Positions 15,313 to 58,641 of a stretch of DNA of 64,000 bases are shown in pieces (positions within the stretch are counted from its first letter, which is position 1; each line of letters starts with the position of its first letter). Both the position numbers and the translations under genes were made by a program. The DNA is from Lachnospiraceae bacterium. Its GTDB lineage: Bacteria > Bacillota > Clostridia > Lachnospirales > Lachnospiraceae. Where the stretch lies: assembly GCA_045531905.1 (NCBI GenBank), contig JAZSEY010000020.1, positions 82,020 through 146,019 on the forward strand, written 5' to 3'. The notes below the pieces were generated by a model. That model searched no databases. It worked only from the letters and a program-made list of their open reading frames with translations, and was not told the DNA's origin.

Positions 15313-15338
15313 TTATTAAAATGTAAGATAAAGAAAAT

Positions 15339-15411
15339 CAAGGTATGGTAAAGTATCATCTTTTTTTTTGAAATAGAAAAACGCAATGATACTTACCATA
15401 CCTTGTTTTTT
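15339..15411. terminator. Long hairpin terminator (~20-bp stem)
   Basis: AAGGTATGGTAAAGTATCAT pairs with ATGATACTTACCATACCTT. The hairpin is flanked by T9 inside the loop and T6 after it. Confidence 0.6.
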
Positions 15412-17971: not shown

Positions 17972-17979
17972 TAGTGAAA

Positions 17980-18006
17980 AGGCACTGTAATACAGTGTCT
18001 TTTTTA
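17980..18006 (+). terminator. Rho-independent terminator
   Basis: GGCACTGTA-ata-CAGTGTCT followed by TTTTT. Confidence 0.5.
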
Positions 18007-18026
18007 TTGTCTTTCGATTGATATTG

Positions 18027-18369
18027 TGCAGTTATAAGCATACGCATCATTATATTTGTATCATTAAGTATGTATAAGTGCTACTTGTGTCATTTTTTAT
18101 TCATACCACACACAAAACTTCAACACAGAGAGGTAAATTGGCATGAGGCGTGCCTCAAAATACGTCGGCACTTATTGCACTATCACACAGTTCTGTGTGG
18201 TAGTGCAATTACGTACCGCTACGTATTTTGGGAGCGCAAGCGCTACGCTGATGTCAATTTACCTCCCTGTGTTGTTCAAACATTGTGTGTGATATGAAAA
18301 ATAACACAAGCAACACTAACACATACTAAATAATCCAAATAAGATGATACTTTATGCTTATAACTGCGC
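18027..18369. repeat. Long nested imperfect palindrome (element 1 of a 5-member family)
   Basis: The outer arms are GCAGTTATAAGCAT... and ...ATGCTTATAACTGCG. The inner arms are ACACACAAAACTTCAACACAGAGAGGTAAATTG and its reverse complement. The core carries CTCAAAATACGT...ACGTATTTTGGG units. Confidence 0.7.
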
Positions 18370-18567
18370 TATAACATATGAAAGACAATAAAATAGGCAA
18401 CTTTCACTATATAAAATAACACTGACTGCCGATATAATAGATGAAATCTAGTATTTTGCCCGAATTTAGCAGATTTCAAACATGTATAAAATGGATTTTA
18501 TGCGTGATAAGACAGGGCAACAAAAGTAACTATCGTTCATGTAGAGAAGATCAAGGAGGAGATTTCT

Positions 18568-26428: not shown

Positions 26429-26991
26429 TGAATGTATTTGAATTGTTCGTGTTAGCGATTGGGCTGGCCATGGACGCATTTGCTGTGTCCATTTGTAAGG
26501 GATTATCCTTGGGAGAGATTAACAAAAAGCATATGTGCATCGCTGGAGCATGGTTTGGTGGATTTCAGGCCTTGATGCCTGCAATAGGCTTTTTCTTGGG
26601 TAGTTTTTTTGCGAATATCATCACGAAGATAGATCATTGGATTGCATTTGGCTTGCTCACTATTATTGGTGGGAATATGTTGCTGGAATCATTAGGAAAA
26701 GAAGAAGAGGAACTTGATAGTTCCATGACAGCAAAGACCATGTTTGTATTGGCAATCGCCACTAGTATTGATGCTTTAGCAGTGGGAGTTACCTTTGCAT
26801 TTATGAAGGTGAATATCTGGATTGCGGTAACCTTTATCGGTGTGGTTACCTTCATTTGTTCCGCAGTAGGTGTGAAGATAGGCAGCGTCTTTGGTGCGAA
26901 ATACAAGTCTAAAGCAGAGTTCTTTGGTGGCGTGGTGCTTATTATTATTGGTGCGAAGATATTGCTGGAAGGACTGGGCGTAATAGCATAA
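26429..26991 (+). CDS. mntP: Manganese efflux pump MntP
   Basis: The N-terminus is MNVFELFVLAIGLAMDAFAVSICKGLSL, and the duplicated DUF204 half also contains an LAVG-type motif. Start adjusted to the ATG carrying an AGGAGG ribosome-binding site. Confidence 0.85.
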
Positions 26992-27215
26992 AAAGAGTAC
27001 AAGCGTTACGGCGAGATGCTTTCGCTCGCAAAATACGTAACGGTACATAATTGGTCTGTCACACAAATTTTGTGTGGCAGACCAATAAGTACCGACGTAT
27101 TTTGAGGCTCGCCTCTAACACTTGTACTCTTTTTGTTAGTTGTGCGTGGAATGCATAATTAGCACATGAAACACTAATACATTCTATACAACAAAAATAA
27201 GATGATGTTGCATGA
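26991..27215. repeat. Palindromic intergenic element 2. It is a perfect ~140-bp palindrome carrying the CAAAATACGT unit, joined to the family's right terminal module.
   Basis: AAAAGAGTACAAGCGTTACGG...CTAACACTTGTACTCTTTTT with centre GGTCTGTCACACAAATTTTGTGTGGCAGACC. It is followed by CACTAATACATTCTATACAACAAAAATAAGATGATGTTGCATGAAC. Confidence 0.6.
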
Positions 27216-27279
27216 ACTATATCCCTTTCAGATAACCGTACACACTCTATAAAATATGTATTAACACACATCTTCCTAG

Positions 27280-28239
27280 CTATATAAATAGGTGCTTCTG
27301 CCTCCGCAATCGCATTTTTACCTGTTCTAGGAACCGTTCATTGCCGAGTACCTCTATCATAGGTCCGAAGGCGAGTATTTCGATTAGGAGTTCTGTTTCC
27401 ATTTTCTGATTATAGTAGATGAGACACTCATAAGTGTTGTCATCTATTTTTTTTGTGTTCTTTTCGTAATTGGCAAATTGGAGCATGGCACGTTCTAATG
27501 CATTTCTATCGTTGTGGATTAGGAGTCTGACTGGCTCCTTATAGTAACTTTCTCGAATACTTTTATTGATGTCCGGTAATTTGTCAACGTATTCTTCTAG
27601 TAGGGCAACTTCTTTCATGCGGTCGAGATTGAGAATTTCAACCCGTGCTAAATTGTCTCCCTTTACTGTGCCAAGCAGACGGAACTTGTCATTTTTGATG
27701 GAATATTCTAACCGGCATGGCAGATAATGATGATGTACCCGATGATGTAGTTTTGACTCATACGAAATATCAAGATATTCACGCTTTTCGATTGCTGTTA
27801 TAATGGTGCGAAAATGCCGAATATAGTCAGCGTCCTCGTAAGGGTCTCTATTGGTGTAACGGTCATAATAGTAAAAGTCCCCAGTTTGCCATAAAGGCAC
27901 GACATCTTGAAATATCTGCAACAACGCTTCTATATCTGCTGTATCTAGGAATAATGGCATTTTGGAATCTAGAAGAATTGTTTTTATATATGCTTGTTGT
28001 AACTTAGTAAGTGGTACATAAAAGTTCTCGGACAGCTTGGAAACATAAATATCATCATCCCGGTGAAAGAAATCCCATTCACCCTGAGTTAATTTTGGAA
28101 TCAGGTAAAGCAGGCTTTCTTCGTAGCCATCATTCTCAATCCGAAGGCGCAAATCTTCCAAAGAGATGGCAGAGTTATCCTGTAATATGTGTTTCATAAT
28201 CTGATAATAGCAATTATAGATTTCTGAGAATAATTCCAT
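27280..28239 (-). CDS. Hypothetical protein that may contain a WYL domain
   Basis: A 319-aa protein. The segment PCRLEYSIKNDKFRLLG....ARVEILNLDRM loosely resembles the WYL core (WYL...R.FRLDRI). Confidence 0.4.
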   Translation of the reverse strand: MELFSEIYNCYYQIMKHILQDNSAISLEDLRLRIENDGYEESLLYLIPKLTQGEWDFFHRDDDIYVSKLSENFYVPLTKLQQAYIKTILLDSKMPLFLDTADIEALLQIFQDVVPLWQTGDFYYYDRYTNRDPYEDADYIRHFRTIITAIEKREYLDISYESKLHHRVHHHYLPCRLEYSIKNDKFRLLGTVKGDNLARVEILNLDRMKEVALLEEYVDKLPDINKSIRESYYKEPVRLLIHNDRNALERAMLQFANYEKNTKKIDDNTYECLIYYNQKMETELLIEILAFGPMIEVLGNERFLEQVKMRLRRQKHLFI

Positions 28240-38175: not shown

Positions 38176-40104
38176 ATGAGTGGTTTAGTTTATACTAATG
38201 ATTCTTGTATTGGTTGCAACAAGTGTATCCGAGCATGTAGTTGCGATGGGGCCAACATTGCAAAAGAAGTGGATGGAAGGAATTACATCGAGGTAGATGC
38301 TGAGAAATGTATTGCATGTGGAGCATGCTTTGACGTGTGTGAGCATCATGCCCGTTCTTTTATGGATGACACAGAGAGATTCTTTGCGGATTTGGCAAAG
38401 GGTGAGCGTATCTCTATCATTTTAGCACCTGCATTTAAGGCAAATTACTATAGTGAATATGAGAAGATTTTGGGTGGTTTAAAGAAGTGTGGTGTTAACC
38501 AGATTATTAGTGCTTCCTTTGGTGCAGATATTACTACATGGGCTTATATTAAGTATATTACTGAGAATAACTTTATGGGCGGAATTTCTCAGCCATGTCC
38601 AGCGGTAGTAGGTTATATTGAAAAGTATATTCCAGAGTTAATTGACAAGCTGATGCCTGTACATAGTCCAATGATGTGTAGTGCTATTTATGCTAAGAAG
38701 TATATGGGTATTACAGATAAATTGGCATTTATCAGTCCATGTATTGCAAAGAAGAATGAGATTGATGATCCGAATACGGATGGTTATATTTCATACAATG
38801 TTACCTTTGATCATTTGATGAAGTATGTGAGAGAGCATAATGTATATGGTCCTGCAGTTTCAGATGATGTACCATATGGTTTAGGTTCAATTTACCCAAT
38901 GCCGGGTGGTTTGAAGGAGAATGTATACTGGTTATTAGGTCAGGATGCATTTGTTCGTCAGATGGAAGGCGAGCAGCATATGTACCATTATCTGGAGAAG
39001 ATGAAGGGTAAGATTAAGGCAAATATGACACCATTCCTCTTCATTGACGCCTTGAATTGTAGCGGTGGTTGTCTCTATGGTACAGCCATTGAAGAGAAGA
39101 TGAATCAGGCAGATGATGTTATCTGTAATTTACAGAAGATTAAGGAAGTTAGCGATAAGCAGGGTAAGAAGAGTGCTTGGGAAGAGACTCTAACACCAGC
39201 AAAACGTTTGCAGAAGCTCAACAAACAGTTTGAGAATTTGAGTCTGATGGATTTCATTCGCAGATACACAGATAAGAGTGCCGGATGTAGAATCAATCAT
39301 CCTTCTGATGAAGAATTAGATGAGATTTTCATGACCATGAATAAGGATACCAGAGACAAGCGCAATATCAATTGTAGTTGTTGTGGTTATCAGACATGCA
39401 CAGATATGGCGGTTGCCATTCACAATGGTTTCAATCATAAAGAGAATTGTATTCACTATGTAAAGGATTTAGCCATTGAAGAGAAGGAATACATTGATGG
39501 TCTCATGCAAGATATGAATGAAAAGAACGAGCGTGAGCAGGAGCAAAAGCAGATTATCTTCGATATCATTAATGAGAACTTTGCTGACTTGTCCAATTCC
39601 GTTGCAAGTGTAGAGAGTAGTAGTAATGCTAACGCAGAGAACAGCGGCGAGATTTCAGATGCCATGTCAAATGTGCGTGATTTTGCTGCGAAACTTAGAA
39701 GTTCATTAGAGCATATCCGTAGTTATTTGGAAGCTTTGGAAGAGAATAACAATGACGTTATCAATATTGCCAGTCAGACTAACCTCCTAGCATTGAATGC
39801 TTCTATTGAGGCTGCTAGAGCGGGTGAAGCAGGAAGAGGCTTCTCTGTAGTAGCTGAGCAGATTAAGGTTTTGGCTGAGAGTTCAAAGGAAACTGTTACA
39901 GAAAGTAGTCAGACAAAGTCGGATATAGAAAACAACGTTAATACTATCTTACAGGAGGCAGACCAGTTGCTTGAGATTTTGCATACTGTAGATGACAAGA
40001 CACAGAATTTGGCAGCATCTTCAGAAGAGATTGCAAGTTCTATTCAGTTGATTTCGGACATCACATCGGATGTAACTGAGAAACTTGAACAAATTACATT
40101 GTAA
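38176..40104 (+). CDS. Cytoplasmic chemoreceptor in which a ferredoxin-like domain and a [FeFe]-hydrogenase-like H-cluster domain are fused to an MCP signalling domain
   Basis: 4Fe-4S motifs [13 protein letters not shown] and [14 protein letters not shown] are present. The hydrogenase L1-like loop is SQPCPAV (one Cys lost), L2 is SPCIAKKNE and L3 is [10 protein letters not shown]. An extra CSCCGYQTC cluster follows. The MCP signature is [27 protein letters not shown]. No TM helices. Confidence 0.75.
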
Positions 40105-40316
40105 ATGATACAGGGGAATTTGTGCATGGCATTTACTCGTTAAGAATGTCTAAGCATATTCTGTGAAATATATTGCTCACACATAAAACTCGCGTAGAGA
40201 GCAGCTTGCAGGTTGCTCTCTAGCGAGTTTTATGTGTGAGCTTATATTTTGCACAGAACATGCTAATACCTTCTAAACAAGTAACTGATATGCCGAGAAT
40301 TCCCCTGTATCATTTA
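40104..40316. repeat. Palindromic intergenic element 3, filling the whole convergent intergenic gap
   Basis: The arms AATGATACAGGGGAATT and AATTCCCCTGTATCATT enclose the family modules TAAGAATGTCTAAG..CTGTGAAATATATTGCTCACACATAAAACTCGC and its inverse. Confidence 0.7.
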
Positions 40317-43372: not shown

Positions 43373-44407
43373 ATGCCTGAAAATAAAGAAATAAACAATG
43401 ATAATAGAAAGAAAAAGTGGCATAAAGTGTTGTATGTGCTGTGTTTACTGAGTTTTATTCCGTATTTTTTGACCGCCTTAGCTGGTATGTTTGGGATAGA
43501 ATTTGGTTTTTTTGGAAATTCAGAGATGTATTATGGTTTTGAGGCAGTCGCTTTAATCGTTGCAATATTTACCACAATAATTCCAGTGTATCCGGTTTTG
43601 CTGGTGTTACAGATAATTTACTGTCTTTGGTACTGGAAGTCATTATTAAAGAAACAGAAGAAACTGTTGATTGGTATCTTGATATCCATTGCAGTGATGG
43701 CTGTTGTACCGGGTGCATTTCATTATGTCAGACAGGAAATATCTATCAGCCTGGCATATAATAAAAGTATTGATGTGATAGAAGATTATTTGATAGAACG
43801 ATTTGGTGAAGAGCATGCAGCAAAAATGCAAGTAAGGCGTCCGAATGAGGATTCATTGTGGTACTATGTGAACACTCCGCTGATGTCCAATGATATCAGC
43901 TTACTTATGAATGAAACATTGACTGAGGTGCAAAACGATGATTTTTGTAGCAGATTTATGGAGTCGCATGATTTTCAGAATAAGTTTGATATGCACTTAA
44001 CAAAGGAATGGAAATTGCCAATCAATACTTATGTGAATAGTCTGGTTACCAATATTGATATTCGGAATTACCGTGAGGGTGATGCCATAGAAACATTGTT
44101 TGATGATTGTACTTATCGGATTGCAAGTATTACGATTTATCATTTGTCCTATGACAAAAATGAGATTATGGAATGGATTAGAGAAATCTACATCAACAAT
44201 GCTGAAGCTCTTAAGGATTGTTGTGATGACAATTCTATCAACGTATATGTGAAAGTGAATGACCAATATTATGCCAGCATACACATTGGGCGCTCTTCAA
44301 CGGATATGAATCGTTTGAAATTGTGGTTTTCCGGTTATTCAGACGGCAATGGTAAAACGATAGAGTATTCAGAGGAAGAGATAGATTTATTGCAATCATA
44401 CAAATAA
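43373..44407 (+). CDS. Hypothetical membrane protein
   Basis: Three or four N-terminal TMs followed by a soluble domain. Confidence 0.5.
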   Translation: MPENKEINNDNRKKKWHKVLYVLCLLSFIPYFLTALAGMFGIEFGFFGNSEMYYGFEAVALIVAIFTTIIPVYPVLLVLQIIYCLWYWKSLLKKQKKLLIGILISIAVMAVVPGAFHYVRQEISISLAYNKSIDVIEDYLIERFGEEHAAKMQVRRPNEDSLWYYVNTPLMSNDISLLMNETLTEVQNDDFCSRFMESHDFQNKFDMHLTKEWKLPINTYVNSLVTNIDIRNYREGDAIETLFDDCTYRIASITIYHLSYDKNEIMEWIREIYINNAEALKDCCDDNSINVYVKVNDQYYASIHIGRSSTDMNRLKLWFSGYSDGNGKTIEYSEEEIDLLQSYK

Positions 44408-44513
44408 CAGAGTAGGAAATTGTTGTGACAGACAATTTCCTATTTTTTCATTCAGATACATTTTAGATACAATTGTGGTTTATGATAGGGATATGTTGGA
44501 AGGAGGAATAGCC

Positions 44514-45710
44514 ATGAAAATACGTTTTTTAATATTTGTAGCATCCTTGTGCATTTGCCTTTCCGGATGTCAGACATCAGGTGATATGAAGGTTGATAAG
44601 GAGAGTGAGAATGCAGGGAATCATTTGCAGAATACATTGTGTGAGCAATTAAAGGCAGACGAGACATGGACAGAAGTAATCAATACACCAGATGGAAAAT
44701 CAATCGAAATAGATGTGCGTGTTCAGGTGCCTTCGGTGAAATCATTAAATGTTTATGCTGCAAAGAAAAAGAAAATAGACACGGCTACGCGAAAGTCATA
44801 TTTAGAAAAGTATAATACAGGAACGTTACTTGCTTGTAAAAATGATGACCCTTATAGTGCAGGTTTGGGAGATCCGGAGTTGGTGCCAAATTGGGAAGAG
44901 CACACTGGTGATTACACAGATAATTATTATGGTGTGGAATATCGGGATAGAGAATACTTCATGTATTTCAATGACGCAGATGATTTTAAATGGGGGAATA
45001 TGATGACGCTGTTACCAATGGATAAGATAACTGGAAACGGCTCTGATTATTTTATTACGTTGAATTTTGATGCATCTGTCACAGAAAATGTTTGTGCTTT
45101 AGGTCAGGAGGATGCAATTTCTCAGGCAGTTGCCTTTGCCAATGAACTGACAGGTCAATCGTTTGATGTGATAAATACATATCCTCTTGTGTGGGGAGAT
45201 GATACTAAAGCAAATGGATATGAGATTTATCTGAGAAGAACTATAGATGGGGTGCCATTAGATGGAAATTATTATTATTGGGTGAATTATATGATGCATA
45301 GGTATTATGACGTATATCCTAATGCCTATGGCAGTTTGGAAAAAATGCATGTATATATCAATGATGATGGCATCTTGGGATTTCAATATATCGGAATGCG
45401 TGAAGAGGGAGAACTTGTTGCTGAAGATGTAAAACTATTGGACTTTGAGAAGGTAAAGGAAAGTCTTCGGATTGCATTGATTGAAAATGTGGATGGAATG
45501 TTTTCTGATTTGTATTTGGGAACTTTAGAATTATTATATTTTCCATTGTGGGATACGGAAGAACCGGAAAGGTTTACAATTATCCCAGTGTGGCGATTAC
45601 TAGCAGATGAGGATGCGGATAAAGCGGAGAGCGTGGTTATGATAAATGCCATGGATGGTTCATTGATTGATATTGAGTCCAATATTTTTTTAGAACCGGA
45701 AGGGGAATAG
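44514..45710 (+). CDS. Hypothetical lipoprotein, paralog A
   Basis: Lipobox LSGC. The C-terminal block LELLYFPLWDTEEPERFTIIPVWRLLADED is shared with the next gene. Confidence 0.55.
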   Translation: MKIRFLIFVASLCICLSGCQTSGDMKVDKESENAGNHLQNTLCEQLKADETWTEVINTPDGKSIEIDVRVQVPSVKSLNVYAAKKKKIDTATRKSYLEKYNTGTLLACKNDDPYSAGLGDPELVPNWEEHTGDYTDNYYGVEYRDREYFMYFNDADDFKWGNMMTLLPMDKITGNGSDYFITLNFDASVTENVCALGQEDAISQAVAFANELTGQSFDVINTYPLVWGDDTKANGYEIYLRRTIDGVPLDGNYYYWVNYMMHRYYDVYPNAYGSLEKMHVYINDDGILGFQYIGMREEGELVAEDVKLLDFEKVKESLRIALIENVDGMFSDLYLGTLELLYFPLWDTEEPERFTIIPVWRLLADEDADKAESVVMINAMDGSLIDIESNIFLEPEGE

Positions 45711-54587: not shown

Positions 54588-56060
<1,473 letters not shown>

Positions 56061-56063
<3 letters not shown>

Positions 56064-56303
56064 CAGCGGATACTTTGCACAGAGAGTGGGTATTCATTCT
56101 TCATCACTATATTTGTGTTGTTATGAATGTCTAAGTATATCCTGTGAAATATAATTGCCCACACATAAAACTCTACTCCCTACTGCTCAAACAGTTATGT
56201 GTGGGTATATATTTTGCACAGGATACACTAACACATTCTATAACAAACAAATAATGTGATGTTTCATGAATACCCACTCTCTGTATATGACTATCCGCTG
56301 TTA
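56061..56303. repeat. Palindromic intergenic element 4, the simplest unit of the family. Both convergent stop codons lie in its arms.
   Basis: TAACAGCGGATACTT...AGAGAGTGGGTATTCAT mirrors ATGAATACCCACTCTCTG...TATCCGCTGTTA. Internal modules are ATGAATGTCTAAGTATATCCTGTGAAATATAATTGCCCACACATAAAACTC and its inverse. Confidence 0.7.
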
Positions 56304-57671
56304 TTGATATAACTTACGCCGTAGTCTTTTCATGACATATAGATAGGCTGGTATTAGGAAACAGTCTGCTGCCAGCCATGCTAATGGTCCTTCAAATGGA
56401 ACCAAGAGAAAACCAAAGGTTGGTACTAGATACACGCCGGAAAAACTTCTTGCAATCATCTCACAGATACCAGCGATAATCGCAAAGGTGGAATAACCAA
56501 GCCCTTGAATTGTAAAGCGTACAGTGTTGACAAATGCTAATAAAAAATAGAACATAGAACTACCACACAAGAATTTATAAATTAGTTCTATGATATAGAT
56601 TTCGTCAGCATCCACAAACAGTAAAGCAAACTGTTTGCCAAAACTTACCATAATTAAGAAGATTATCAGTCCATAACCAATACCTAGCTTTAAGCAGTCT
56701 TTTAAACCTTGGTCTATTCTGTCTAATTTTCCGGCACCAACATTTTGACCACTGTAAGTTGCCATAGTAGTACCCATGGCTTCATACGGACAGGTTGCAA
56801 ATATGCCAATTCTGTTGGCTGCGGTAACTGCAGCCACAACTGTTTCGCCAAGAGCATTGATAGAGGTCTGCAAAATGACGCTTCCGATGCCGGTGACGGA
56901 ATATTGTAATCCCATAGGGATGCCTATGCCACAAAGCTTTAACACATGAATTTTTCTAATGATCCAGTCCTCATTTTTAAAATGCAAATAACTATATTTT
57001 TTAATAAAGTAAAATAGACAGATAATACCAGCGATACCTTGGGCTGTGATAGTGGCAATAGCAGCACCAGCAACTCCCATAGGCTTTATCATTAACAAAT
57101 CCAAAACAATATTTAGTAGTGAAGAGAATACCAAAAAAATTACAGGTATAACACTGTTGCCCATGGAACGAAGAATTCCAGAGACCATGTTATATAGAAG
57201 AATGGCGGGCGTGCCCAGAAATATAATCAAAATATATGTGTAGGCATCCTGGAAAATGGTATCAGGCGTCTTCATCATAATCAAAATGTCTTTTGTCAAC
57301 AGACAAACCACAGTGGTAAATATTGTCGCAAAGATAATGGATACCCACACACAATTGGTAATGTACCGTTTTAGATTGGTTGTATCCTTTGCACCAAAGG
57401 CCTGAGCTACAGGTATTGCAAATCCATTGCAAACACCAATACAAAATCCCATAATCATAAAATTAATTGAACTGGTAGAACCTACAGCAGCTAGGGCATT
57501 TACACCTAATACTTGACCGACAATAATTGAGTCTACCATATTATACAATTGTTGAAAGATTAAACCAAATAATAGAGGAAGTCCAAAACTCAGTATCAAT
57601 TGCATTGGTTTTCCTTCTGTTAAATCTTTCGTGCCGGATGATGTGTTTTTAAAGAGTTTCATTTTTAACAT
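56301..57671 (-). CDS. MATE family efflux transporter
   Basis: 12 TMs. Start set to ATG 57671 (MLKMKLFKN), which carries a GGAGGAAG ribosome-binding site. The longer ORF extension lacks a ribosome-binding site. Confidence 0.85.
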   Translation of the reverse strand: MLKMKLFKNTSSGTKDLTEGKPMQLILSFGLPLLFGLIFQQLYNMVDSIIVGQVLGVNALAAVGSTSSINFMIMGFCIGVCNGFAIPVAQAFGAKDTTNLKRYITNCVWVSIIFATIFTTVVCLLTKDILIMMKTPDTIFQDAYTYILIIFLGTPAILLYNMVSGILRSMGNSVIPVIFLVFSSLLNIVLDLLMIKPMGVAGAAIATITAQGIAGIICLFYFIKKYSYLHFKNEDWIIRKIHVLKLCGIGIPMGLQYSVTGIGSVILQTSINALGETVVAAVTAANRIGIFATCPYEAMGTTMATYSGQNVGAGKLDRIDQGLKDCLKLGIGYGLIIFLIMVSFGKQFALLFVDADEIYIIELIYKFLCGSSMFYFLLAFVNTVRFTIQGLGYSTFAIIAGICEMIARSFSGVYLVPTFGFLLVPFEGPLAWLAADCFLIPAYLYVMKRLRRKLYQ

Positions 57672-57849
57672 AATACTTCCTCCTCTCAAAAATTGGTGAA
57701 ATGTTAATATCACCCTAATTTGAGAATAAACTGAGCAAGGAAAATGCGATATCACTTTATGGTTTGTTTTTATAACAATCGTACATTTTGTAAATAGAAG
57801 GCTTTGTGTTATAATACGTGGAAGATATGAAAAACAGGAGGGAATATAC

Positions 57850-58641
57850 ATGACTCCATTAGAGCAGTATTACAATAAATTCAATGAAGAGAAAAGATTA
57901 TTAAGCAGGCATGGTCAGGTGGAATATGCAGTAACCATGAAGTACATACATAAGTATTTGCAGAAATTGAAGGCTCGAGGCGTGGAACAACCACTGAAGA
58001 TTTTGGATGTGGGAGCAGGAACCGGTCGATATTCCGTTGCCCTTGCAGAAGAAGGATATGATGTCACTGCGGTGGAATTGGTGAAATACAATTTGGGAAT
58101 TTTGAAGAAAAAGAATAGTGCAGTGAAAGCTTATCAAGGGAATGCTCTCAAATTGAAGCGTTTCGAGGATCATACTTTTGATGTGACTTTGATGTTTGGT
58201 CCCATGTATCATTTACTGACCTTTGAAGAAAAATGTCAGGCACTGTCCGAAGCAAAACGTGTGACAAAGCCAGGTGGCTATATCTTGGTAGCTTACTGCA
58301 TGAATGATTACAGTATCCTGACATATGGTTTTAAAGAAAATCATATGAAGGAATGTGTGGAGAATGGGAGCATTCATCCTGAGACCTTCCGGGTAAATCC
58401 ATCTACGGAGGATTTATATGATTATGTCAGACTAGAAGATATAGATGCAGTCAATGCTCATGTGGGTATGAAACGAGTTCAAATCATTGCACCGGATGGC
58501 GCAGCAGATTATATGCGTCAGACCCTAAATGCCATGGATGAAGAGACTTTTGATTTGTTCATTTCTTATCAAATGTCAATCTGCGAACGTCCGGAATTAT
58601 TGGGTGCAAGCTCACATACCGTAGATATTTTAGAAAATTAA
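57850..58641 (+). CDS. Class I SAM-dependent methyltransferase
   Basis: Motif I is ILDVGAGTGRYSVALAEEGYDVTAVE. Confidence 0.8.
   Translation: MTPLEQYYNKFNEEKRLLSRHGQVEYAVTMKYIHKYLQKLKARGVEQPLKILDVGAGTGRYSVALAEEGYDVTAVELVKYNLGILKKKNSAVKAYQGNALKLKRFEDHTFDVTLMFGPMYHLLTFEEKCQALSEAKRVTKPGGYILVAYCMNDYSILTYGFKENHMKECVENGSIHPETFRVNPSTEDLYDYVRLEDIDAVNAHVGMKRVQIIAPDGAADYMRQTLNAMDEETFDLFISYQMSICERPELLGASSHTVDILEN

Follow-up and report, generated by a model that had tools for sequence, protein, structure and literature searches.

Five palindromic elements downstream of genes

The window analysed in this study is a stretch of 64,000 nucleotides from a Lachnospiraceae bacterium (contig JAZSEY010000020.1). 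It is ordinary Lachnospiraceae chromosome, the family assignment being taken from the source names of homologues, and its genes include those for citrate synthase, MntP, a GH1 glycosidase, a MatE transporter, a GH25 muramidase, RtcB, ABC transporters, and two-component systems. A repeat search, together with blastn using each element as query, revealed five related imperfect-palindrome loci in this stretch and no sixth. These elements, designated E1 to E5, range from 215 to 480 bp in length and occur at a mean density of about one copy per 13 kb. The 8–16 kb between neighbouring copies is filled by unrelated housekeeping genes. The positions of the elements are as follows.

E1: 17996-18399
E2: 26989-27217
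E3: 40102-40316
E4: 56048-56316
E5: 63395-63870

An initial annotation of the window had described a five-member intergenic family whose members fold into long hairpins, and both points were borne out. Blastn gave these five loci and nothing else in the window, and the copies were found to have blocks of 50–120 nt in common (70–91% identity, E-values down to 1e-25). The pattern of the left module, with 22 specified bases, had three exact matches, whereas 0.00 were expected from shuffles. Every copy folded two to three times as stably as its own shuffles. For E4, the fold was −133 kcal/mol on the plus strand and −142.5 kcal/mol on the minus strand, compared with about −52 and −61 kcal/mol for the shuffles (z about −18). 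By blastn, paralogous copies were 67–90% identical and no near-identical pair was present in the window. These results bear on the simplest alternative, namely that the elements are mere local duplications or chance hairpins without kinship. All known window copies do lie within one 46-kb stretch, and nothing else supports this idea. The pattern count, the blastn blocks, and the orthologous copies in a sister lineage described below rule it out, and the wide spacing amid unrelated genes also stands against it; we regard it as practically excluded.

All five copies were located downstream of a stop codon: three at convergent junctions, of which the window has eight, two between tandem genes, and none between divergent genes. 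The copies between convergent genes are E2, E3, and E4, as had been annotated. The statement that every copy starts at or within a stop codon does not hold for E1, which starts 25 nt past the stop and overlaps the 3' end of a canonical terminator (17976-18004). The conserved modules that had been ascribed to all members are shared by E3, E4, and E5; those of E1 form a diverged subtype, about 67–73% identical to the rest. The left module is missing from E2, which consists of a stem, an inner module, and the right module only. This inner module, B (118 nt; present in E1, E2, and E5, and inverted in E2), was absent from the earlier description.

Modular structure of the elements

The full-length unit, represented by E1, E5, and two sister-lineage copies, is about 300 nt long and has the order ATCAT-A-linker-B-linker'-A'-GATGAT inside copy-specific outer arms. 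The outer 35–85 nt of each palindrome are specific to the copy and are not family sequence. Modules A and A' are imperfect inverses and pair with each other. The cores of E1, E4, E5, and the sister copies lie between terminal inverted repeats (left, ATCAT(T/C)..ATTT; right, AAAT..GATGAT), whose pairing runs on inward through A and A'. A mismatch bubble of 3–5 nt immediately outside ATCAT/GATGAT is conserved. The two modules also differ from each other in a conserved manner: GAATGTCTAAG faces CTAAYACATTC, and CTGTG-AAATATAA faces TATATTTTGCACAG. These asymmetric bulges and mismatches are kept across E3, E4, E5, and the sister copies. Modules A, A', and B are 70–120 nt long with 38–50% G+C.

Module B consists of a 32-pair stem between AAAA and TTTT, plus a second small hairpin on the 3' side, and folds on its own with 43 pairs. 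Compensatory double changes were observed in 11 of the 43 pairs. There are three subtypes of B, 70–75% alike; their apical stems are unrelated in sequence and always paired. A covariance model of B (R1) detected exactly seven copies in 194 kb of window and relatives, with clear strand calls. Each of the nine copies examined contained B once or not at all, and no tandem array was seen. CGTC and GTAG sit inside the stem and bulge of B, and GTAG is not conserved (GTAA in E2 and in copy S4). We also considered a small protein encoded by B, from an open reading frame (ORF) starting at the ATG of GGCATGAG (63575-63727 in E5 and 18143-18292 in E1). This candidate was rejected: the ATG is ATA in the sister copy S5 and is missing in E2, and the C-terminal halves are unrelated.

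The remaining copies lack parts of the unit. E3 has the order A-short centre-A' and E4 the order A-half linker-A', both without B. In E2, a terminator-like stem (AAAAAGAGTACAAG.../...CTTGTACTCTTTTT) encloses an inverted B, and an A' without a partner comes after it. From this module content, E3 and E4 are best read as internal-deletion derivatives, and E2 as a copy that lost A and carries B flipped. The parts of each element are listed below, with the scores of model R1 in bits and with inverted repeats denoted by I and a number.

E1, 17996-18045: outer left arm, copy-specific; overlaps the tail of the citrate-synthase terminator 17976-18004
E1, 18046-18120, plus strand: module A, diverged subtype; begins ATCATTATATTT
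E1, 18140-18257, plus strand: module B, subtype B1; R1 116.4 bits on the plus strand and 43.2 on the minus strand
E1, 18281-18348, plus strand: module A'; ends AAATAAGATGAT
E1, 18349-18399: outer right arm; 18349 to about 18379 derives from about 27 nt on the left side of the core, as an inverted copy that is old and diverged
E2, 26989-27009: left half of the terminator-like stem (TAAAAAGAGTACAAGCGTTA); includes the MntP stop TAA, 26989-26991
E2, 27002-27120, minus strand: module B, subtype B2; R1 111.7 bits on the minus strand and 49.3 on the plus strand; inverted repeats I3 and I7
E2, 27116-27134: right half of the terminator-like stem, then T-run (TAACACTTGTACTCTTTTT)
E2, 27135-27217, plus strand: module A' with no partner A; ends AAATAAGATGAT plus GTTGCATGAAC
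E3, 40102-40138: outer left arm; opens with the stop TAA of the gene for an Fe-hydrogenase-like methyl-accepting chemotaxis protein
E3, 40139-40193, plus strand: module A
E3, 40194-40222: centre, a short linker hairpin; B absent here and present at the E3 site of the sister lineage
E3, 40223-40281, plus strand: module A'
E3, 40282-40316: outer right arm; the minus-strand 278-aa gene takes its stop (40310-40312) and part of its tail from here
E4, 56048-56102: outer left arm; last codons and stop of the GH1 gene (ends 56063); I10, 96% complementary
E4, 56103-56173, plus strand: module A
E4, 56174-56194: centre; of the linker stem only the right half remains, and 146 nt, comprising B and the left half-stem, are missing relative to the sister copy
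E4, 56195-56260, plus strand: module A'
E4, 56261-56316: outer right arm; stop (56301-56303) and last codons of the MatE gene; I10
E5, 63395-63480: outer left arm; begins 17 nt inside the GH25 gene (stop 63409-63411); I5
E5, 63481-63551, plus strand: module A
E5, 63572-63689, plus strand: module B, subtype B3; R1 134.9 bits; paired linkers 63552-63571 and 63690-63719
E5, 63720-63786, plus strand: module A'
E5, 63787-63870: outer right arm; terminates in an inverted copy (TTACTGCAAAAACTATA) of the final 17 nt of the GH25 gene; I5

In E1, 17996-18042 and 18353-18399 form the inverted repeat I6 (83% complementary), and the arms overall are about 80% complementary. Beside E2, the 64 nt up to the stop of the minus-strand gene (27217-27282; stop 27280-27282) hold GTATTAACACACATCTTCCTAG, which by eye resembles CTAACACATTCTA of A'. 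Possibly it is the remnant of a further, decayed A' and provides the stop of that gene, the likeness being below blastn significance.

Orthologous copies in a sister lineage

Syntenic contigs of relatives were found by way of the flanking proteins, and the comparison spans three related lineages. The sister lineage, represented by the ENA and Logan metagenome contigs L002, L003, L013, L016-L018, L021, and L022, is 92–99% identical to the window in DNA (average nucleotide identity about 95%). Copies at the same sites were found to differ between these relatives, which is the kind of polymorphism that had been proposed as a check on the family. No extra copies off the orthologous sites were present in about 86 kb of sister-lineage DNA.

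The cores of E4 and E5 match L002 with 93–96% identity on the strand opposite to that of the flanking genes. At the E4 site, the L002 copy retains B, and window E4 corresponds to this copy minus 146 nt, that is, B and the half-stem. Moreover, L021 and L002 are 98.2% identical over 7.3 kb with a flip at the E4 site as their sole difference: L021 7243-7373 is the reverse complement of L002 11770-11640 (97.7%). The orientation in L021 is that of the window, and L002, L003, and L022 are flipped. At the E5 site, the core is flipped in the sister, about 47 nt of each outer arm is replaced symmetrically, and the copy sits within AAAGGGGCAGT.../...ACTGCCCTTTA. The inversion breakpoints were inside the outer arms, which are perfect over 25 nt. 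The sister copy at the E2 site is present and collinear, with unchanged orientation. The common orientation of the right-hand modules that had been noted is therefore real in the window, where all five A' modules are co-oriented, but is not kept in close relatives. A global orientation switch was rejected, with the E2 and E3 sites of the sister unflipped, E5 flipped, and E4 polymorphic.

The E3 site of the sister carries another derivative, with a reduced A, a full B, and no outer arms, between flanks that are 98% identical; it starts TAAGAAT, and its TAA is the stop of the upstream gene. At the E1 site of the sister, the core and the inverted copy of the left flank of about 27 nt are missing, the left flank itself is kept (L013), and a 20-bp-stem hairpin is left. 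The junction has CATA microhomology, with the imperfect TATAAGCATAC / TATAA-CATAT. As the E1 arms are about 80% complementary while the lineages differ by 2–5%, the inverted flank copy must be old. This points to the absence of E1 from the sister being probably a deletion, and not a new insertion in the window.

Substitutions in the stems were also informative. Between orthologues, two-sided substitutions were observed at five of 339 stem pairs, compared with 0.77 expected (P about 0.001), and pairing was kept in four of the five. Taken together, these comparisons establish, at the level of DNA sequence, the kinship of the elements, their modularity, and the ways in which the copies change.

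The flips raise the possibility of a programmed inverton, in which the element would be inverted by a site-specific recombinase acting at its perfect outer arms, with a change in the 3'-end or antisense regulation of the convergent genes on either side. Orientation at the GH1/MatE site is polymorphic among 98.2%-identical strains, two of four shared sites are flipped between window and sister, B was flipped independently in E2, and the breakpoints lie within the perfect 25-nt arms, all of which would fit such a system. Weak outward promoter-like hexamers are also present in A/A' of E4 and in A of E1. However, neither the window nor the syntenic relatives have a gene for a recombinase or invertase. 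The candidate outward promoters (TAGACA-16-TATAGT and CTAACA-16-AATAAT in E4, and a similar one in E1) were rejected: they are not conserved in E3 and E5, and the overall count of promoter-like matches equals the shuffle expectation. The element is palindromic, so a flip alters scattered mismatches only. Furthermore, the assemblies cross the outer arms unbroken and break only at B, which argues against mixed orientations within samples, and flips are an expected by-product of template switching between inverted repeats (PMC8604942). We therefore consider a programmed inverton very unlikely.

The independent short-read assemblies L003, L021, and L022 (Logan, 7.37–7.42 kb) all stop, on either side, inside or at the edge of B at the E4 and E5 sites; the repeated B module thus fragments short-read assemblies of the sister lineage. 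The level of identity between the lineages also switches at elements: 97.95% before E4 and 92.2% after it, and 97.6% before E1, 94.8% between E1 and E2, and 96.8% after E2. The MatE gene (56301-57851) is only 77.8% identical to that of the sister in DNA (83% in protein), with 98% on the left side and an average of 92% in the block on the right. These values suggest, from the alignments, imported alleles with recombination tracts that end at or near the palindromes.

Unoccupied sites in a more distant relative

GCA_965330485.1 (contigs L004 and L012) is 71–81% identical to the window in DNA (about 75% overall). The sites of E2, E4, and E1 are unoccupied in this genome, and the divergence there (72–80% identity) is too great for the junctions to be read. 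Its GH1/MatE spacer has a plain bidirectional terminator where E4 would be, and its E1 site has a different gene. At the site orthologous to E2, 11 nt are common to the MntP gene and the convergent gene next to it (L012 7475-7485), with no intergenic DNA left; the same junction measures 288 nt in the window. The GH25 site of this genome carries a 345-nt palindrome (L004 5871-6215), whose membership in the family is unproven, with short motif matches only (z <= 4) and no detection by the B model. The genome also has a motif of its own, TAGAGCTnTnGCTCTAAAnTGTC, at L004 6078-6100 and 11465-11487, in two gene-end spacers and each time immediately 5' of a hairpin. The 345-nt palindrome includes one of these copies. 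The motif may be a functional analogue of module B, although the covariance model of B does not detect it. No long palindromes were present in 21 kb of L019, a Lachnospiraceae contig at about 70% MatE identity.

Such unoccupied sites would be expected if the elements were active miniature inverted-repeat transposable elements (MITEs), that is, if the ATCAT.../...GATGAT unit were mobilised in trans and inserted into hairpin loops at gene 3' ends. Several features agree with this idea. Five small non-coding copies are dispersed over 64 kb, and their ends are conserved, with the bubble just outside. B2 lies inside a typical terminator of A-tract, stem, and T-tract in E2, the sister copy at the E5 site is enclosed by the inverted pair described above, and E1 occupies the 3' margin of a hairpin loop; this hairpin, with a stem of 20 bp, is intact in the sister. 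On the other hand, the search for target-site duplications (TSDs) that had been recommended gave a negative result: no direct repeat flanks any copy, and the flanks are inverted instead. The identity of 67–90% among paralogues implies no recent copies, the sole case of presence and absence on a short timescale (E1) is better read as a deletion, and copies off the orthologous sites were missing from the sister DNA. No transposase is encoded in the 64-kb window, and the only one in about 150 kb of relatives belongs to the IS110 family (L016), has no sequence in common with the elements, and is not inserted in one. Accordingly, of the earlier suggestion of a MITE-like or REP-like element, the dispersed, non-coding, hairpin-forming family at gene 3' ends stands, and active transposition that targets gene 3' ends is not supported; we consider the latter unlikely.

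The IS110-family gene belongs to a 1.7-kb insertion of the sister (L016 16332-18058) at window position about 44501/44502, between the genes 43373-44407 and 44475-45710, that is absent from the window. It encodes a 408-aa transposase (DEDD_Tnp_IS110 and Transposase_20 domains) between flanks that are 98.6–99.1% identical. A link to the elements was rejected, the insertion site being an ordinary 5' region.

Evidence for and against a structured RNA

We next weighed a functional structured RNA, for example 3'-untranslated-region (3'-UTR) hairpins or small RNAs whose internal loops (GAAUGUCUAAG opposite CUAAYACAUUC) would be recognised by a protein or RNase. The conserved blocks alternate with variable, always paired stems; B contains 11 compensatory pairs; substitutions between orthologues are mirrored; and the asymmetric bulges are kept in E3, E4, E5, and the sister copies. 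An RNA-level effect that depends on orientation is known for ERIC and Correia elements (PMC2229807, PMC3049150), an analogy that is consistent with such a role. In contrast, Rfam gave no family even at E<=1, and the two strands behave alike: the minimum free energy is about equal, and G.U pairs number 26 on the plus strand and 24 on the minus strand. Among the arm mismatches of the window copies, the G.T type (17) was no more frequent than the A.C type (21), and many mismatches are non-pairing transversions. Elements flip in place between 98%-identical strains, and entire modules can be missing, B from E3 and E4 and A from E2. There is also no conserved promoter, the promoter-like matches being at background level. 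The structured small RNA that had been suggested is weakened by the lack of an Rfam match, the equality of the strands, and the tolerance of flips and module loss, and we consider this explanation rather improbable.

Growth of the arms into gene ends and relation to terminators

Both convergent genes at E4 end in TTATATCAATAA (TTA TAT CAA TAA), so that the two TAA stops lie in the arms, as had been pointed out, together with identical LYQ* ends of the two proteins. Orthologous tails elsewhere are unlike these: MatE proteins end in ...RKLVTI or ...RKLAVSQL, and a GH1 protein ends in ...GACIQ. The element at the E3 site also provides the stop and the final codons of the minus-strand gene, whose product ends in ...PTTITNK* in the window and in ...PTEIH* in the sister; the region of the 278-aa gene tail that differs from the sister lineage extends to about 40330. 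These sequence differences show the palindrome arms, as we read them, to grow outward into the stops and tail codons of flanking genes.

The gene whose stop opens E3 (38149-40104, 651 aa) encodes 4Fe-4S and Fe-only-hydrogenase large-subunit domains fused to a methyl-accepting chemotaxis signalling domain. Its homologues number thousands at E<=1e-100 and are widespread in Lachnospiraceae. From its domains, the product is presumably a redox- or H2-sensing chemoreceptor.

Terminator features were then compared. A stem followed by a T-run was seen only in E2 (TTTTT, by eye), and B is flanked by AAAA and TTTT(T). No T-run was seen by eye in E3, and no terminator was found inside E4 or E5 in a scan whose stem and loop limits leave out hairpins this long. 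From their position, the elements might act as terminators, insulators of convergent genes, or protectors of mRNA 3' ends, and the most plausible function would be that of a terminator or 3'-UTR stabiliser. The ordinary terminators of this genome have unusually long stems of 14–36 bp. One at window 15334-15410 (L013 18492-18568) is a very long bidirectional terminator that is a perfect palindrome with a 36-bp stem in the sister; in the window, unlike in the sister, a T-run replaces the inner part of its left arm.

Proposed origin and mode of change

We propose that the elements are an old, lineage-specific family of modular foldback repeats, BOX-, ERIC-, or MITE-like and situated in terminator position, which now evolves chiefly by rearrangement between inverted repeats and not by transposition. 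This explanation is probable, though not certain. The family would originally have been a non-autonomous mobile element that spread, perhaps into the loops of terminator hairpins; this route is suggested by B of E2 in a terminator stem, by the enclosed sister copy at the E5 site, and by E1 at a loop edge. It may have persisted as a very stable 3'-end hairpin that is harmless or useful. Template switching or recombination between the arms would then flip an element in place. The same inverted-repeat processes would copy changes in one arm to the other, push the palindrome out into stops and dispensable last codons, and remove parts from its inside or its sides. Homogenised arms, inverted spacers, and expanded repeats are known results of template switching between imperfect inverted-repeat arms (PMC8604942, PMC13100816, PMC7202029).

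Some points weigh against this explanation. Past mobility is deduced from dispersion and from empty sites in one genome of only 72–80% identity, and neither a TSD nor a donor copy nor a transposase for the elements was found in the window and about 150 kb of relatives. Mirrored changes and covariation would likewise arise if a functional RNA or DNA structure were under selection to stay paired. Nor does the explanation account for the shared orientation of all five A' modules of the window, which has a chance of about 1 in 16. The role as terminator or stabiliser is pure inference, with a stem and T-run limited to E2, and the sampling is limited to three related lineages.

A further possibility is that the elements are maintained, fast-flipping switches at 3' ends, inverted by a hairpin- or cruciform-directed activity often enough for polymorphism within a species. 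The activity would then be a dedicated recombinase or a strongly favoured template-switch reaction. The bulge differences between A and A' would mean that a flip swaps the version of the 3' hairpin, and thus termination or mRNA stability, between convergent genes, and through the same activity the neighbouring genes would receive stop codons and C-terminal residues from the palindrome. We regard this as quite doubtful.

The family of foldback repeats proposed here adds a well-resolved repeat family from the under-studied Lachnospiraceae. It is a clear natural case of the evolution of a long quasi-palindrome, with in-place flips, mirrored arm change, overwriting of gene ends, and loss of modules; the flip polymorphism within a species, the mirrored arms, and the arms that supply stop and tail codons to both neighbours are unusually clear. 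The naturally flipped alleles in 98%-identical strains make the effects of the orientation of 3' hairpins testable.

Searches in other sequence collections

Rfam 15 at the gathering score gave no match over the window, and at E<=1 only two sub-threshold matches to microRNA precursors for E5 and E1. The module A pattern had one chance match only in the GTDB representative genomes (a metagenome-assembled genome of Mariprofundaceae). The JGI metagenomes gave nothing but seven chance matches in coding DNA. The A and B patterns had no match in IMG/VR, and blastn found none in PLSDB plasmids and INPHARED phages. A match to an already described family thus came up neither by sequence nor by model. 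A full-text search of the literature gave no description of such elements in Lachnospiraceae, and the family appears to be undescribed.

Comparison with known systems

The elements share the position after the stop codon with the intrinsic terminators of the same genome, and the stem of E2 and the AAAA-stem-TTTT of B resemble them. Unlike these terminators, they are 5–10 times longer, have a common family sequence, and in E3 to E5 have no T-run after the hairpin. The template-switch process of quasipalindromes explains the mirrored substitutions, the inversion of cores, and the growth of arms; it is, however, a mutational process and not an element family. Most of its documented cases concern short inverted repeats of E. 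coli and yeast, whereas here it would involve arms of 100–240 bp, repeatedly and at several sites.

The attC sites of integrons have core sites R''/L''-L'/R' (RYYYAAC / GTTRRRY) at conserved ends and a variable centre, measure 57–141 bp, and form arrays beside an integrase. This reading was rejected for the present elements: their centre is conserved and their ends are variable, the copies are 8–16 kb apart, and no integrase is encoded in the window.

REP, BIME, and REPIN sequences resemble the elements in their niche downstream of genes and in the larger hairpins formed by inverted units. REPs are palindromes of 20–40 bp with an unpaired GTAG or CGTC tag at one end (PMC3733652). They lie downstream of genes, between unidirectional or convergent ORFs, and inverted pairs of them fold into larger structures and form mosaics in alternating orientation (PMC3733652, PMC2817692). 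They are usually G+C-rich and linked to RAYTs (Y1 transposase), and no RAYT gene was found in the window. The modules here are 70–120 nt long and have no terminal tag, GTAG occurring only as a bulge in some B copies. The REP reading was rejected on this anatomy, that is, on module size and the missing tag.

ERIC/IRU and YPAL sequences of Enterobacteria, like the elements, are imperfect palindromes in transcribed intergenic regions with no known dedicated transposase. Wilson and Sharp (2006) reportedly described shorter and longer ERIC variants that arose by internal deletions or insertions. We know of no description of in-place flipping or of arm growth into genes for ERIC. The ERIC sequence measures 127 bp, with contiguous terminal inverted repeats (TIRs) of 7 bp and TA termini or TSD, and its orientation matters for its effect on mRNA (PMC2229807). 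The present elements differ in their length of 215–480 bp, the lack of a TA duplication, and the Clostridia host.

BOX of streptococci has the closest architecture, with terminal modules that pair and an optional inner module that folds on itself, both of which are also seen here. Like the elements, BOX is intergenic, strain-variable, found in Firmicutes, and wide in its size range. In S. pneumoniae it has the order boxA-boxB(n)-boxC. BOX elements have TIRs and give rise to TSDs. They measure 67–637 bp, and the boxE/boxF-type terminal modules of S. suis measure 115–133 nt (PMC3049150), similar in size to A plus an arm here. Unlike in BOX, B occurs 0 or 1 times and never in tandem, the terminal modules are near-inverse and make a quasi-palindrome of the entire element, each copy has outer arms of its own that reach into coding sequence, and no TSD is seen; the likeness is one of architecture. 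Both the class of dispersed palindromic intergenic repeats and the processes of template switching in quasi-palindromes are already known, and the elements described here are a family within that class and not a new kind of system.

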